This document shows, in pieces, positions 17,184 through 37,296 of a stretch of 55,224 bases of DNA. The number at the start of each line of letters is the position of its first letter. Within the stretch, counting starts at the first letter, position 1. Position numbers and translations under genes: made by a program. The stretch lies in assembly GCA_005881025.1 (NCBI GenBank), contig VBFO01000007.1, positions 1-55,224 on the forward strand. Reading direction: 5' to 3'. The notes beneath the pieces are model-generated. The model made no database searches, was not told the origin of the DNA, and was given only the letters and a program-made list of their open reading frames with translations. The stretch is from Chloroflexota bacterium. GTDB taxonomy: Bacteria > Chloroflexota > Dormibacteria > Dormibacterales > Dormibacteraceae.

Positions 17184-17287
17184 GATCGTTGCGAACGCGG
17201 GAGCTCGCGAACTTTCGGGGGCTGAGAGGGCGCCGCCGCGCCGACCGCATGAACCTGAACTGGGTAATGCCAGCGGAGGGACGGATC
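17184..17287 (+). promoter_or_regulatory. TPP (THI-box) riboswitch
   Basis: GGGGGCUGAGA (17217-17227) ... GAACCUGAAC-UGGGUAAUGCCAGCG-GAGGGA (17251-17281) matches the conserved TPP aptamer core. It ends 6 nt before the ATG at 17288, and the conserved GGAGGGA doubles as the SD. The 5' boundary is approximate. Confidence 0.85.
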
Positions 17288-18661
17288 ATGGGCGACGTCG
17301 TCGCACCGAGCGGCACCGACTCATTCGGTCAGATCGAACGCCGTGGCGTCGAGGCCATCCCGGCCGCCGAAAGGCATGGCCGTCCGCGTGACCTTGCATT
17401 CCTGTGGGCGGGAGCGTTTGTCAACTACGCGAGCCTTTTCACTGCCAGCCTGCTGACGACCTACTACGGGCTCGGGGTTTGGGATGGGCTCGTCGCCACC
17501 GTGATCGGGACCGTGACGGCTGCTCTGATCCTCGGGCTGCTCAGCAACACGGGCCCTCGTTCCGGACTACCACAGATCATCTTCACCCGCTCGATCTTCG
17601 GGCTGCGGGGTTCATACGCCGGTGCGGCCCTGACCCTGTTCCTCGCCGTTGGATGGTTTGCGGTCGACTGCGTGATCGCGGCGCAGGCCGGCGCACAGCT
17701 CGTCGGTGGAGGCGGACGCGCGCTCACCTTCGGGCTGGTGGTGGTGATCGCGATCGTCAGCGTCGCCGTGGCCGTGTACGGACACCAGACGATCAGCGTC
17801 CTCGAGAGGTACGGCGCGATTGCGTTCGCGGCGCTGTCGGGCGCACTCTTCGTTTTCCTGGCGCCTCAGTTCCACTGGGGCCAGGGACCTACCATCGCGG
17901 GCACTGACTATCCAGGCGCGTTCGTTCTCGGCGCGATGACTTGCTTTGCCCTCGTCGCTTCCTGGTTCCCGTTCGCGAGCGACTATTCGCGTTATCTACC
18001 TGCTTCCAGCGCGGCGCGGTCGGTGTCATTCTGGCCCGCGGCCGGGGTGGTGCTGCCGATGGTCTTGCTGGGCATCTTCGGTCTGCTCCTGCCCACGATC
18101 GACACCGGCCTCGCGGCCCAACAGGGAGTGCTTGCGGTGGTCAGCGCTTACGCCCCGCCATGGGTGGCGGCGCCGTTCTTCGTGTTCGTGGTCCTGGGCG
18201 AGATCTGGGCCAACTATCTGGACGTCTACACCGCCGGCCTCGTCCTGCTGGCCATGGGCGTCAAGCTGCAGAGGTGGCAGAGCGCGCTTGGCTGCGGCAT
18301 CCTGGGCAGCGCCCTGGCCGCATACGCAGTGCTCGTCAGCGACTTCCACATCGCCTACGAGGACTTTTTGATCCTCACGTACCTGTGGGCCCCCGCCTGG
18401 GCGGCGGTGGTGTTGCTGAGCTTCTTCGTATTTGAGCGTCGAGTGCGGCCAGGGGTGGCTGTCGGGGCCTGGTTCGCCGGCACCATCGCCAGCCTGGCCT
18501 TCGTGAACTACGACAACCTCTTCGGCAACATCGTCGCCGGCCCGGCTTTCTTCAACCACGGACTGATCGCGGGGCTGCATGGCGCCGACCTCAGCGGAGT
18601 GGTCAGCGTGGCGGTCGCGGCGCTGAGCTACGCGGCCATGCGGCGCGTGTCCGCGACGTGA
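17288..18661 (+). CDS. cytX: NCS1-family (purine-cytosine permease-like) transporter, probable hydroxymethylpyrimidine transporter
   Basis: About 12-TM protein. N-terminus [33 protein letters not shown] is typical of the cytosine/HMP permease family. It sits behind the TPP riboswitch and overlaps thiD by 4 nt. The 17189 start in the ORF track would read through the riboswitch. Confidence 0.8.
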
Positions 18662-33905: not shown

Positions 33906-34355
33906 ATGAGGTGGGTGACTCGAAAGAACGCCAGCGTGGACCGGATCGCGTGTCCATGGCTGATCAAAAGATTCGTCGACCCTGAGGCCGAGTTCCTGTA
34001 CGTGCCCGTCGGTGAGGTGGCGTCAGCGGCTGAACGGCAGGGCGCCATCCCCTACGACGTGAGCGGGGCGGAGCTCGGCCACGTCGACGGCAGGTGCAGC
34101 TTCGAGTCGGTGATCCTGAAGTACAACCTGAAGGACCCGGCGCTGGACCGGCTGGCGATGATCGTGCATGGGGCCGACGTGACGGCCGACGTGAACATCA
34201 CGCCGGAGGCAGCGGGTCTCAAAGCGATCGCGCATGGCTTCGCGATGGTCCATGGCGACAACGACAAGCTCAAGATCGAGCTGGAGACGCCCCTCTACGA
34301 CGCGCTCTATGCGTGGTGCCAGCACGAGGTGGGCCGGGTCAAGCAGCCTGCCTGA
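33906..34355 (+). CDS. ChrB C-terminal-domain protein (chromate-resistance-associated)
   Basis: 149 aa from the ATG at 33906: MRWVTRKNASVDRIACPWLIKRFVDPEAEFLYVP..., which is characteristic of the ChrB C-terminal domain. Confidence 0.7.
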   Translation: MRWVTRKNASVDRIACPWLIKRFVDPEAEFLYVPVGEVASAAERQGAIPYDVSGAELGHVDGRCSFESVILKYNLKDPALDRLAMIVHGADVTADVNITPEAAGLKAIAHGFAMVHGDNDKLKIELETPLYDALYAWCQHEVGRVKQPA

Positions 34356-34570
34356 ACGCGTTGTATCAAGCACCAGCCGAAGTACAGGTGGAAGGCGTCA
34401 ACCCCTTGCCGGACTCGACGTGGTCCGTACTCCCGCCTGCCGGTGCGGCGGCCTGATCTAAATCCCTGACTCCGCCTGTTGGACGCTTCAAGCGTCAGTT
34501 GCCATCGGATCGGGGGGAATGAGAACCAGATGCCACCCCCCTCGGGGATTTGCGGAGGTCGCCAGCACGA

Positions 34571-34619
34571 CTGACTCTGGATCAGAAGGTTGAAGGTTCG
34601 AATCCTTCCTCCCCAGCCA
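34571..34619 (+). repeat. Partial tRNA-Gln (positions 27-75, anticodon stem to CCA), att-like remnant
   Basis: Exact reverse complement of 36772..36820, the 3' 49 nt of the intact tRNA-Gln. The upstream 26-28 nt cannot form an acceptor or D arm. Confidence 0.85.
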
Positions 34620-34659
34620 CAACGCCGATCAGGGCGAAGATGCCTTCCGTGATGGCGGC

Positions 34660-35157
34660 ATGTATGGCTGGTCGGCAGCGACGTTACCCTCTTGTCGAAT
34701 GAGCAGTTCCTTTCACCTCGGCAACGAATCGTCGTCATACGTCGCGGTTGAGGTATCGGAGCGTCAACATCCGCATACGACTGACTTTTGGGATGCCAAT
34801 TGGGTCGTCTCTACAGTCGAGGTCGCTGCAGGCCCTTGGAGAGGGCGCTACCCGGCGAGCTTGCGCAGTGAAGAGTTCGCAACTTTCCGAGACCAGCTCA
34901 CGCGGTTGTACAACGACACCGGCGCCGGTCCAGCAAAGTTTGACTCCATGGAACCCTGGCTCCGCCTGACAGTCGAGCGAACGGACCGACTTGGTCACAT
35001 TAGCGTGGTCGGTGAAGCGCGGATGGAGCCATTCTTCGATCGCCACAACATCCTGCAGTTCGTGATCGAGCTCGACCAGAGCTTCGTGCCAGAGGCGCTT
35101 CGAGGCCTTGCTGAAATTCTTGAGGAGTTTCCTGTAATTGGCTCGCCGGACGATTAG
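34660..35157 (+). CDS. Hypothetical protein, possibly an immunity-type protein (WapI/DUF5959-like pattern)
   Basis: 165-aa ORF (alternative ATG at 34699). Visibly A/T-richer than its neighbours. Pattern ...DFWDANWVVSTVEVAAGPWRGRY...SLRSEEFATFRDQLTRLY...MEPWLRLTVER...VIELDQSFVPEALRGL resembles immunity proteins of polymorphic toxin systems. This comes from memory, not from a search. Confidence 0.45.
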   Translation: MYGWSAATLPSCRMSSSFHLGNESSSYVAVEVSERQHPHTTDFWDANWVVSTVEVAAGPWRGRYPASLRSEEFATFRDQLTRLYNDTGAGPAKFDSMEPWLRLTVERTDRLGHISVVGEARMEPFFDRHNILQFVIELDQSFVPEALRGLAEILEEFPVIGSPDD

Positions 35158-35299
35158 ACGAGCGCGCCTATGGGTGCCCCTCTCGATTCCGGGGAGTTTC
35201 GGTGGCGGAGCCGCCCGGCAGCACCTCAACCCGGCGATCCGATGGCAACTACTCCGCAGCTGATCACACGAGGTTCAGTCGAGTTTCGGTGGCTGCGAG

Positions 35300-35371
35300 G
35301 TTCTGAAACCGAGCCCCTAAAGTCCAAGACTCGAATACAAAATCTGGACTCTAGGGGTCGAAGTTCAGAAC
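35300..35371. repeat. Long imperfect inverted repeat (about 27-bp arms, A/T-rich 16-nt loop)
   Basis: gttctgaaaccgagcccctaaagtcca ... tctggactctaggggtcgaagttcagaac. Confidence 0.6.
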
Positions 35372-35372
35372 A

Positions 35373-35415
35373 GTGGCTGGCGGTCTGAAGTGGCTGGGGC
35401 CTGAGGTGGCTGGGG
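35373..35415. repeat. Three tandem GTGGCTGG(GG) units (period 16-17 nt) at the left flank of the IS
   Basis: gtggctggcggtctgaa / gtggctggggcctgag / gtggctgggg. GTGGCTGGGG is the complement of the tRNA-Gln 3' end CCCCAGCCA(C). Confidence 0.6.
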
Positions 35416-36771
35416 TGTCGACCTTCGGGTGATGTGTCACGGAGCTACTTCGGGTGATGTGTCGCACTTCGTCTGAATCTATCTCCTCCGGGGCGCCGTG
35501 CTGTCGGCATGCAGTTTGCGGACAGGGCCCTTGCTGGTTCGAGCCACCGTCTTGAGCAACTCGTTGCCCACCCAGAACTGAAGCAGGCCGTCCGTCACGA
35601 GCACATCGCAGGCGCTGCCACCGAAGTGTTTGCCCACGCTGACCTGCTGGTAGCCGACGCTCACGAGTCCATTGCTAGCCACCCTTCGGCTGACCCACTG
35701 CTCGCCATTGCGCTCGGGCCGCGGAGTCAGGCGATGCCGCGGCTGGTCGTCGCCGGCATGGAAGCGGCTCTCCGGGGTGGCGTCGAACAACCCCTGATGC
35801 GGACGCTGGGTGTTGTAGTAGCTAACCCATTCGTTCAGCGCCTCCTGTGCTGTCTTCAAGGTCTTGAAGACCTGCCGAGTGTCGAACTCGACTCGAAGGG
35901 TCTTGTGAAAGCGCTCGATCTTTCCGGTCGTGGTCGGCGAGCGCGGCTGGGTCAGGATGTGGTCGACACCGTTCTCGCGACAGATGCGGTCGAACAGCAC
36001 CTCGACCGGCGGTTGTGCGAAGCGGCCGGTGAAGACCTTTCCGTTGTCGGTCAGGACCTGGGCAGGCAGACCATAGGTATTCAGAGCTGAACTGAACCCG
36101 TCGCAGACCGACTGGGTTCGCTCCCTGGCCATTAGCCTCGCCGAGACGCAGTACCTCGAGTGGTCGTCAACGCCGGTCAGCGCCTTGGCTGAGGTCCCGT
36201 CAGCCAAGAGAAAGCCATGGACTAGGTCGAACTGCCAGAGCTCCATCGGCGCCCCTCTCTCCCAGCGCTTCCAGGTTTCCCGCCGCCTCTGTCGGCTGAT
36301 GGGGTCGATGACCGCAGCTCGGACCAGGCAGCGATAGACAGCTGACTCCGAGGGCGCGGCCTCGACCCGCTTGCGCGCCAACTCAAAGGCGATTCGGCGC
36401 GCTCCCCAGTAAGGGCGTGACCGGCGCATCTCGAGCACCATCGCCTCCACTGCCGCCGGCATCTGATGCGGGCTTTGGGCCGGCCGGTGCGACCGATTGT
36501 TCAAGCCTTCGAGTCCGTCACCCTCATAACGCAACAGCCACCGGTGCATCGTTCGCCTGGACACGCCCCAGTCGGTAGCCACCTCGCTCACTGTCCGACC
36601 ATCGCCAATTACTGCCAGGACCGCCTTGTACCTCTGCTCAGTCACGCTCATCTCCCTCATGCGCGGGAGCGTGACAAATCAGCCGAAGTAGGTGTGACAC
36701 ATCAGCCGAAGGCGTGTGACGCATCAGGCGAAGGCCTTTTGGGACCTATCAGCCGAACTTGCACAACGTAA
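35416..36771 (-). mobile_element. IS481-family insertion sequence (about 1.35 kb)
   Basis: Single transposase ORF. Imperfect terminal IRs: left tgtcgaccttcgggtgatgtg, right (rc, from 36765) tgtgcaagttcggctgatagg. Multiple subterminal 18-nt repeats GTGAC(A/G)NATCAG(C/G)CGAAG: 36671-88, 36694-711, 36716-33, a partial copy at 36744-58, and inverted copies at 35423-40 and 35449-66. The exact ends are uncertain. Confidence 0.75.
35479..36660 (-). CDS. IS481-family transposase (HTH plus DDE/integrase core)
   Basis: 393 aa. N-terminal HTH (SVTEQRYKAVLAVIGDGRTVSEVATDWGVSRRTMHRWLLRYEGDGLEGL). rve core (WQFDLVHGF...TDNGKVFTG...). C-terminal YNTQRPHQGL. Confidence 0.9.
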   Translation of the reverse strand: MREMSVTEQRYKAVLAVIGDGRTVSEVATDWGVSRRTMHRWLLRYEGDGLEGLNNRSHRPAQSPHQMPAAVEAMVLEMRRSRPYWGARRIAFELARKRVEAAPSESAVYRCLVRAAVIDPISRQRRRETWKRWERGAPMELWQFDLVHGFLLADGTSAKALTGVDDHSRYCVSARLMARERTQSVCDGFSSALNTYGLPAQVLTDNGKVFTGRFAQPPVEVLFDRICRENGVDHILTQPRSPTTTGKIERFHKTLRVEFDTRQVFKTLKTAQEALNEWVSYYNTQRPHQGLFDATPESRFHAGDDQPRHRLTPRPERNGEQWVSRRVASNGLVSVGYQQVSVGKHFGGSACDVLVTDGLLQFWVGNELLKTVARTSKGPVRKLHADSTAPRRR

Positions 36772-36846
36772 TGGCTGGGGAGGAAGGATTCGAACCTTCA
36801 ACCTTCTGATCCAGAGTCAGCTGCGCTACCGTTGCGCCACTCCCCA
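36772..36846 (-). tRNA. tRNA-Gln (anticodon CUG)
   Basis: Hand-folded cloverleaf, 75 nt: UGGGGAG-UG-GCGC-AACGGUA-GCGC-A-GCUGA-CUCUGGA-UCAGA-AGGUU-GAAGG-UUCGAAU-CCUUC-CUCCCCA-G-CCA. U1:A72 and G73 are typical of bacterial tRNA-Gln. The CCA is encoded. Confidence 0.9.
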
Positions 36847-36921
36847 AGCGCCCGACTTTCGAGCGTACTAGGACGTTTGAGCTCGAGTCGGCCGGCGGCC
36901 CATTCTAAGTGGCCGCTGAGA

Positions 36922-37296
36922 CTAAGGCCGCTTGCTCCCTTTCGGGGCTCCGCCCAGCTCGATCGGCCGCGTGCTCATCTCGATGGACAGGGCGGGTGGC
37001 GCACCCATCAGTCGATCGAAGGTCTCCTTCAGCAGCTCCTTGGCCCGGTAGAAGTTGACAGCCCACCCAACGCCGAAGACCCGATCGCTGAACAGGCGTT
37101 CTGAATCCGGGTTCCAGTAGGCTGCGCGGATCTTGGCCCAAGTCGGCGGCCGGAAATCGTAAGGAACCATGCCGAGTACACGGCCGTGCCACGTTCGTTC
37201 CTCTTCCGGCTTGGCAAGCTCAGTGGCGATGGCGGCCACGACCAGTGCGATCACTGTCAGGCGTACAACTCGACGCATGCCGCGCATAGCCCCCAT
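36922..37296 (-). CDS. DUF5808-like small membrane protein
   Basis: 124 aa from the ATG at 37296 (alternatives at 37287 and 37278). One N-terminal TM segment, then GMVPYDFRPPTWAKIRAAYWNPDSERLFSDRVFGVGWAVNF. The longer ORF to 37692 is antisense to yvcK. Confidence 0.6.
   Translation of the reverse strand: MGAMRGMRRVVRLTVIALVVAAIATELAKPEEERTWHGRVLGMVPYDFRPPTWAKIRAAYWNPDSERLFSDRVFGVGWAVNFYRAKELLKETFDRLMGAPPALSIEMSTRPIELGGAPKGSKRP

Follow-up and report, generated by a model that had tools for sequence, protein, structure and literature searches.

An inverted 3' half of tRNA-Gln beside a WapI-family gene, and IS481-family insertions at the same tRNA end, in a Dormibacterota contig

The window analysed here is a 55,224-nt stretch of contig VBFO01000007.1 (positions 1 to 55,224; NCBI GenBank assembly GCA_005881025.1, a Chloroflexota bacterium that GTDB places in the Dormibacteraceae), and our subject is an intact tRNA-Gln(CUG) gene on its minus strand (36772-36846; called by ARAGORN, 67.1 bits in Rfam), an inverted partial copy of that gene, and the DNA between the two, which holds a WapI-family immunity gene and an insertion sequence (IS) of the IS481 family. 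The partial copy is a 49-mer, CTGACTCTGGATCAGAAGGTTGAAGGTTCGAATCCTTCCTCCCCAGCCA, at 34571-34619 on the plus strand; by sequence comparison and pattern search it is the exact reverse complement of 36772-36820 (0 mismatches), which on the minus strand is nt 27-75 of the intact gene, from the anticodon stem to CCA. An earlier, sequence-only reading of this stretch had claimed both this exact pair and the facing of the two 3' ends across 2152 nt, and both were recovered; there were no matches in 100 shuffles, so that none is expected by chance. A repeat search lengthens the inverted pair to 61 nt at 92%, and the plus-strand copy is unvarying across all same-species contigs covering 34571-34619. 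In its extent, exactly the tRNA 3' part from the anticodon region through CCA, the copy resembles the core of an attachment (att) site.

The plus-strand copy is not a gene. Positions 34543-34619 are called as a whole tRNA by both programs, ARAGORN and Rfam, but the score barely reaches the threshold (29.9 bits, cut-off 29), and the Rfam alignment shows non-standard pairs in the acceptor stem, the D stem and the top of the anticodon stem, where a functional tRNA would have a cloverleaf with standard arms and a score well above the threshold. The Rfam and ARAGORN comparison thus marks 34543-34570 (+) as a degenerate 5' flank and not a functional 5' half; its similarity to the real 26-nt 5' half is weak (shuffle p ~0.011). 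A weak match to RtT RNA covers 34498-34622 (+) at 20.9 bits against a cut-off of 45, and probably reflects the tRNA-like tail only.

Only two credible genes lie in the interval. One is the WapI-family immunity gene (34699-35157, plus strand, 152 aa), which matches PF24716 with an E-value of 5.5e-28 (98.3 bits, the cut-off being 27; the match covers positions 2-138 of the 138 in the profile) and whose true start is the ATG at 34699, as in its homologues and in gene calls on other contigs. The sequence-only reading had seen here an A/T-richer orphan open reading frame (ORF): the lower G+C holds, if slightly (0.58-0.61 in the patch against 0.63-0.69 nearby), while the family assignment means that this is no orphan of unknown kind. 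The gene has 17 homologues of 39-96% identity. Those of L102 and L103 (56%) stand at the far end of a tRNA-Pro island whose integrase is next to the tRNA, ~120 nt from a direct partial copy of tRNA-Pro; that of L099 (62%) occurs in the order integrase, partial tRNA-Pro, 115 nt, WapI; and that of L107 (63%) occurs in a 1.24-kb integrase-less islet with the order partial tRNA-Pro, arm, WapI, small ORFs, arm, tRNA-Pro. In these tRNA-Pro islands the copy is direct and the WapI 5' end is turned toward its anticodon side. Judged from such gene orders, a WapI gene beside a tRNA fragment is something that integration has produced repeatedly. Homology between the DNA flanking WapI and the arms of the tRNA-Pro/WapI islands was considered and set aside (best p 0.04 before correction for 15 tests).

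There is no toxin-like ORF in the interval, the neighbours of WapI being ChrB_C and the IS, and since no toxin is adjacent the gene is an orphan immunity gene. WapA-type toxins include tRNases, and we entertained a functional link between the tRNA fragment and WapI; we dropped it as a primary reading because WapI homologues adjoin tRNA-Pro fragments through ordinary integration. One contig 98% identical to the window, L106, has the pseudo-tRNA and a 96%-identical WapI gene and departs from the window after 35274 (L106:880-911 against 35275 onward), which marks another breakpoint between WapI and the repeats described below.

The other gene encodes an IS481-family transposase (35479-36660, minus strand) with the Pfam domains rve (E 5e-15), rve_3 (1.5e-20), HTH_32 (2.1e-15) and LZ_Tnp_IS481 (6.4e-8), so that the IS481 element named in the earlier reading is confirmed. 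Comparison of copies at four tRNA loci with an allele free of the IS delimits an element of 1350 bp (35416-36765, minus strand; ends TGTGCAAG...GTCGACA). Its ends begin with TGT, as in the IS481 family (TGTGCAAGTTCGG and TGTCGACCTTCGG), and it has 18-nt subterminal repeats, four at IRL, the IS end at the transposase start, and two at IRR, the opposite end. In the contigs of this species (98-100% identity; at least 12 samples) ChrB_C, the pseudo-tRNA (+) and WapI (+) are always present, and the tRNA-Gln site is occupied by the IS in some samples and empty in others. The IS-free allele, found in three samples (L012, L013 and L133), keeps the inverted arrangement; the IS is therefore a later, independent insertion, and the role in the inversion that the sequence-only reading had allowed it does not survive this comparison. 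The window is exactly 1356 nt longer than the IS-free allele, that is, by the 1350-bp IS and a 6-nt spacer, with TGGCTGGGG on both sides of the difference. The target-site duplication comprises the last 9 nt of the tRNA (36772-36780), repeated at 35407-35415, and corresponds to a 9-nt overlap in the IS-free L133.

An identical transposase adjoins tRNA-Gln, tRNA-Lys(CUU), tRNA-Lys(UUU) and tRNA-His, multiple loci as expected of a mobile element. At all four tRNA types the IS has one constant orientation and leaves the tRNA intact (copies at 35416-36765 in the window and in L002, L004, L009, L010, L129 and L130), with IRL 5-8 nt past the CCA of tRNA-Gln(CUG), tRNA-Lys(CUU) and tRNA-Lys(UUU) and 12 nt past that of tRNA-His(GUG). 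Beyond IRR come the last 9 nt of the tRNA again and then the native downstream bases; the duplicated stretch amounts to these 9 nt plus ~6 nt, and measures 15 bp without a mismatch in L010 and 16 bp, one of them mismatched, in L002. In the window a 6-nt spacer, ACGTAA on the plus strand (36766-36771), separates the IS end from the tRNA CCA, and this spacer varies between samples: on the IRL side of the same tRNA we found CCTCA, CCTCAG, CCTCAGG, CCTCAGTG, CCTCATG and TTACGT (variants in L001, L006-L008, L118, L119, L122, L123 and L126), the other side keeping its native flank. Both repeated independent insertions and carried-over junction bases could account for this variation. Diverged IRL-like ends without a transposase also occur 5-7 nt past tRNA-Gln-type ends in L019 (twice), L021, L049, L073, L078 and L080. 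A second IS481-family element, which shares 32% protein identity with the first, occupies this point after tRNA-Gln in another strain, in the opposite orientation (L134:946-1543), and is 87% identical to an element in L037 (L037:4125-5130). In the searchable literature we found no description of tRNA-end targeting by IS481-family elements, nor of insertion sequences in Dormibacterota.

In some contigs the left and right sides of the IS belong to different copies. L001, L003, L006 and L118 read tRNA-Gln, IS, tRNA-Lys duplication, sigma-70, and L129 and L130 read WapI, IS and then tRNA-Lys or tRNA-His; one such contig is in a deposited metagenome-assembled genome (MAG; VBGX01000108.1). They could stem from misassembly across this 1.35-kb repeat or from genuine recombination of one IS copy with another.

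The structured repeats noted in the sequence-only reading are present, and can now be described as insertion footprints of the tRNA end and a hairpin. Three tandem units of CC(C/G)CAGCCA plus 6-7 nt, with a period of ~16 nt, were found by repeat search at 35374-35415 (minus strand), the nonamer being the 3'-terminal end of tRNA-Gln; in the IS-free allele this array directly adjoins the tRNA, and similar footprints occur in the relatives L023, L033, L038 and L044. From their sequence the tandem footprints are best read as target-site duplications retained from earlier insertions. Next to them lies a 72-nt near-perfect hairpin, GTTCTGAAAC...GTTCAGAAC (35300-35371; from the sequence and a DNA fold), with GTGGCTG on both sides. 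Its termini resemble the end TCTGAAACTGACGG of the IS at this site in L134, and the hairpin probably derives from a second IS481-family element that targets tRNA ends, as a miniature version of it or a solo end. Folding of the copy flank and the repeat region as RNA and as DNA gave z values of -1.3 and -1.9 and told us little beyond the hairpin, and a promoter and terminator scan of 34200-37000 returned nothing.

On the other side of WapI and around the copy, a repeat search found a 21-nt inverted repeat with its left arm, AGTTGCCATCGGATCGGGGGG, at 34497-34517 (+) and its right arm at 35230-35250 (-). The arms are 90% complementary with a 16-nt core exact on both, and they bracket exactly the partial copy and WapI; the arm beside the copy (34497-34570) has the motif AGTTGCCATCGGATCG. 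A metagenome scan found the repeat at this locus plus three chance matches in coding DNA, and 136 fetched loci held no further copy, related motif or arm, which together rule out the repeat as the terminus of a dispersed element.

For the wider setting we used relatives found by a scan with the protein of the CofD neighbour, taking one genome per species (80 loci, 81-94% identity, for the most part soil MAGs under the labels Candidatus Dormibacterota or Chloroflexi). Gene order is conserved (M3 peptidase, AlkA-like, histidine kinase, (ChrB_C), variable DNA, tRNA-Gln (-), DUF5808, CofD), and since synteny is kept on both sides the change in the window is local. Of the related loci, 63 extend as far as the site; each has exactly one tRNA-Gln(CUG), with 100% identity in 61, and none has a convergent second tRNA-Gln. 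Positions 34360-36771 have no counterpart in the 80 loci except for the tRNA-derived stretch 34571-~34633, so that the bracketed DNA occupies a variable site, and the WapI gene is absent from all 80. An exact empty site was not found within the same species. Many related contigs (L017, L041, L045, L050, L059, L089 and others) stop at the 3' end of tRNA-Gln or only a few bases from it, which fits repeats or strain variation there across the phylum.

In 11 of the relatives (L019, L021, L024, L027, L038, L044, L056, L062, L064, L067 and L068) we found 13 long partial copies of tRNA-Gln, 0.6-6.8 kb downstream of the gene and all direct repeats; an inverted copy occurs in the present species only. 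They span nt 30/31-75 in most cases, 22-75 in L064 and 34-73 in L068. A conserved arm of ~110-145 nt precedes 12 of the 13 copies, with 72-85% identity among genomes that are otherwise unlike in this region. When the 12 arms were made into an nhmmer profile, it recovered the relatives' arms with E-values from 2e-16 to 1e-38; in eight further loci it picked up a portion of the arm motif, close to the tRNA-proximal end. The arms have repeated TCAGAYGCGG and AATTC motifs. By sequence, direct copies with arms have the attR/attL layout of a classical att-repeat architecture. The DNA that they enclose is varied cargo of 0.6-6.8 kb, sometimes in tandem (L021, L024, L027); the islet of L056, for instance, is 0.6 kb with a single SCO4226-like gene, a direct tRNA-Gln copy and no recombinase. 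These islets look like cassettes moved in trans. An IMG/VR provirus has a Phage_integrase gene directly after an identical tRNA-Gln, and elements with a tyrosine recombinase thus do use this tRNA-Gln gene. The window's copy lies at an insertion hotspot shared across the phylum.

Directly behind the CCA of tRNA-Gln (within the first 45 nt), eight relatives (L017, L026, L042, L064, L074, L079, L086 and L087) have a palindrome of the form ACTATATGTGG...CCACATATAGCC, and in all of these except L017 and L042 part of the arm motif lies ~60-100 nt beyond it; the palindrome probably represents the arm of these islets on the tRNA-proximal side. On the anticodon side of the window's copy, the flank holds two CAG(A/T)TGCC motifs, at 34496 and 34529 (33 nt apart), and CTCTGG comes 46 nt after the start of the second; the relatives have two TCAGAYGCGG motifs ~31 nt apart and ~50 nt before CTCTGG. 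Homology of this flank to the relatives' arm was not detected by nhmmer; what is left is this likeness of spacing, which was seen post hoc.

tRNA-targeted elements carry the tRNA 3' part, from the anticodon region to CCA, and rebuild the gene on integration, while the displaced copy normally stays as a direct repeat at the far end. Against this background we lean, with confidence a little better than even, to the reading that the 49-mer is most likely the att-repeat core of a small tRNA-Gln-targeted integrative islet that carried WapI and was later turned around. The decayed integrative island that the sequence-only reading had proposed gains support here from the direct copies in 11 relatives, the provirus, the WapI cargo and the absence of the interval from the 80 related loci. 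The islet would have been moved by a tyrosine recombinase no longer present or acting in trans and would have brought in the WapI-family gene. A later local rearrangement would then have turned the copy around, with or without WapI; this could have been an inversion between the 21-nt repeats (34497-34517 and 35230-35250), whose undoing would make the copy direct and put WapI beyond it, after its CCA end, and an alternative is that the fragment entered reversed by an illegitimate event. Since then IS481-family elements have struck the real tRNA end repeatedly, a few bases past CCA, and would have given rise to the footprints and the hairpin relic as well as the present IS.

Several results weigh against this islet reading. 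Its orientation requires an extra, unobserved event: the copy is inverted where an att core should be a direct repeat, and conservative site-specific recombination gives direct repeats, not two intact inverted cores in one step, so that something further must have happened. The presumed ancestral direct arrangement was seen in no same-species contig. WapI has its 5' end toward the CCA side of the copy, 79 nt off, so that the window is no simple mirror of the known WapI islands, and homology between the flanks of the copy and WapI and the arms of the tRNA-Pro/WapI islands went undetected; nor did the copy flank match the relatives' arm profile by nhmmer at E<10. As the sequence-only reading had said, the interval holds no integrase, and tblastn with three tyrosine integrases from related islands found nothing in the whole window (best E 0.098) or in the relatives' loci. 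Among the 25 commonest Pfam families listed for 78 flank ORFs of the relatives, none was a recombinase.

Instead of an integrated islet, the piece between the 21-nt repeats (34497-35250, ~750 bp) might be foreign DNA from another Dormibacterota genome that entered by transposition or illegitimate recombination, not by att x att exchange, its orientation being accidental. This we judge unlikely. The inverted repeat does bracket exactly the copy and WapI, the patch is of lower G+C, and with tRNA-Gln so nearly invariant (the 61 of 63 loci above) a piece from any relative would match perfectly; but the repeat ends have no target-site duplication, no transposase is associated with the unit, and the motif recurs neither in the metagenome scan nor among the fetched loci. 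Rather unlikely, too, in our view, is a segment still inverting between its 49-nt arms, by homologous recombination or by an integrase in trans, so that an interval of 0.8-2.15 kb would exist in both orientations in the population and WapI would alternately lie just downstream of the real tRNA-Gln. Among the matches listed, one contig, L120, has exactly the flipped junction that this predicts: in it the real tRNA-Gln (5' half, on the side of DUF5808 and CofD) runs by way of the 49-mer into CAACGCC...WapI, 449 nt being 100% identical, and its adjacency of tRNA-Gln end, CAACGCC and WapI is also the one that undoing the inversion between the 21-nt arms would restore. L120 could come from a strain that keeps the ancestral arrangement, from a flip of the 49-nt arms or from a chimeric join made at the repeat during assembly. 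Iterative assemblers can form chimeras at repeats of 49 nt in their small-k rounds, and L113 and L124, both broken within the 49-mer, show that assembly is difficult here. Moreover, L120 is one contig among ~12 on that side, the reciprocal junction is in none of ~20 contigs that read through the plus-strand copy into WapI, and there is no recombinase gene nearby. We think it quite improbable, going a step further, that the 49-nt halves are the recombination sites of a DNA switch, in which a recombinase in trans or recombination of the arms would flip the interval and WapI would alternate between a silent position behind the pseudo-tRNA and one 79 nt downstream of a strongly transcribed tRNA-Gln, with L120 as the second isomer.

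That a tRNA-end-targeting IS made the inverted copy, for instance by adjacent inversion in the course of intramolecular transposition or by recombination of inverted IS copies later lost, seems to us very improbable. The site has been hit by at least two IS481-family lineages in opposite orientations, and a weak match to the subterminal repeats, CAGCCGAAGTACAGGTG, lies at 34374-34390, between ChrB_C and the copy (p ~0.01-0.02). The inverted arrangement is nevertheless present in the IS-free allele, these elements duplicate 9-16 bp and not 49 bp, and the ungapped relic match is at background (37/100 against a maximum of 41 elsewhere). We accordingly do not rely on an IS relic between ChrB_C and the copy (a 17-nt match at p ~0.01, the rest of the 100 nt being at background), nor on an un-flipping model in which inversion of 34459-34626 between GGCCTGATC and GATCAGGGC would put that relic at the exact IS-to-CCA distance. 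The other explanation offered from the sequence, a truncated second, convergent tRNA-Gln gene, taken here as truncated or decaying and inherited vertically, we give scarcely any credence: ARAGORN and Rfam do call a full-length tRNA at threshold and the 5' flank is weakly like the real 5' half, yet the relatives refute it, none of the 63 having such a gene and each having exactly one tRNA-Gln and no convergent partner; the abrupt drop from 49/49 identity to a weak 26-nt 5' half does not fit uniform decay; and the flanking DNA is lineage-specific. Comparing the tRNA-Gln locus in relatives, as the sequence-only reading had suggested, thus gave 11 with direct att-type copies bounding cargo and no case of two convergent genes.

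Elsewhere in the window, a TPP (thiamine pyrophosphate) riboswitch at 17187-17300 (+) is just over its Rfam threshold (54.6 against 54.3 bits). Among the 40 large ORFs scanned, the C-terminal helicase domain of DnaB occurs in two separate ORFs and the N-terminal domain in one; the dnaB gene may be split or interrupted, perhaps by an intein.

The inverted tRNA half is in itself a small curiosity, an att scar in the wrong orientation; the more notable results are the tRNA-end-homing IS481-family elements and the integrase-less att-flanked islets. A single tRNA 3' end in the uncultured soil phylum Candidatus Dormibacterota is where mobile DNA of at least three kinds lands, namely att-flanked islets, often without an integrase of their own, two IS481-family lineages, and miniature derivatives. 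Both IS481-family lineages enter just beyond the CCA, within a few bases of it, and restore the tRNA end through the duplication of their target, and the tandem footprints would record past cycles of insertion and loss. If confirmed, tRNA-end homing by an IS with a single DDE protein would offer a compact, naturally occurring means of inserting DNA at a set position while sparing the gene, and if the segment truly inverts, it would be a new way to build a genetic switch from an att site.

Among known systems, islands and prophages with tyrosine recombinases are the closest model for the copy. Reiter et al. in 1989 and Williams in 2002 are said to have described their integration in the tRNA 3' part, with an att block running from the anticodon loop or stem to CCA. 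The window block, nt 27-75, likewise ends exactly at CCA and adjoins a lineage-specific patch of lower G+C with cargo, and at the same tRNA-Gln 11 relatives have att-type direct copies and a provirus carries an integrase; the window block differs in that its copies are inverted, no integrase is present and its arm is unlike those of the relatives. CIMEs, the cis-mobilisable, integrase-less, att-flanked mini-islands of Streptococcus, offer a second comparison. With integrase-less mini-islands such as L107 and L056 the window shares a small number of cargo genes (WapI in L107), the lack of a recombinase and a partial copy by the cargo, whereas their partial copies are direct, with WapI of L107 toward the anticodon side, and that of the window is inverted, with WapI toward the CCA side. 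The RtT repeats of E. coli tyrT (RF00391) are likewise partial tRNA 3' ends reiterated downstream of a gene; they are direct and tandem, and with a score far below 45 there is no evidence that the window belongs to them.

For the IS, the IS481 family has a DDE transposase and target duplications of 4-15 bp per ISfinder. Its ends are TGT/ACA (PMC11406308). The window IS shares the rve, rve_3, HTH and LZ_Tnp_IS481 domains and the TGT ends, and has a 15-bp perfect duplication in L010; it differs in its fixed-orientation insertion 5-8 nt (once 12) past CCA with the tRNA preserved, in its multiple 18-nt subterminal repeats and in its variable junction spacer. Type V-K CRISPR-associated transposons and the eukaryotic Ty3 and Dictyostelium TRE elements home to tRNA genes, too, with machinery of another kind. 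So do Tn7-like elements (PMC11406308). The window IS differs from such tRNA-homing transposons in having a single DDE transposase gene, with no TnsC/TniQ, guide RNA or RNA polymerase III link, and is like them in its fixed short distance from the tRNA, its defined orientation and its sparing of the gene, a safe harbour.

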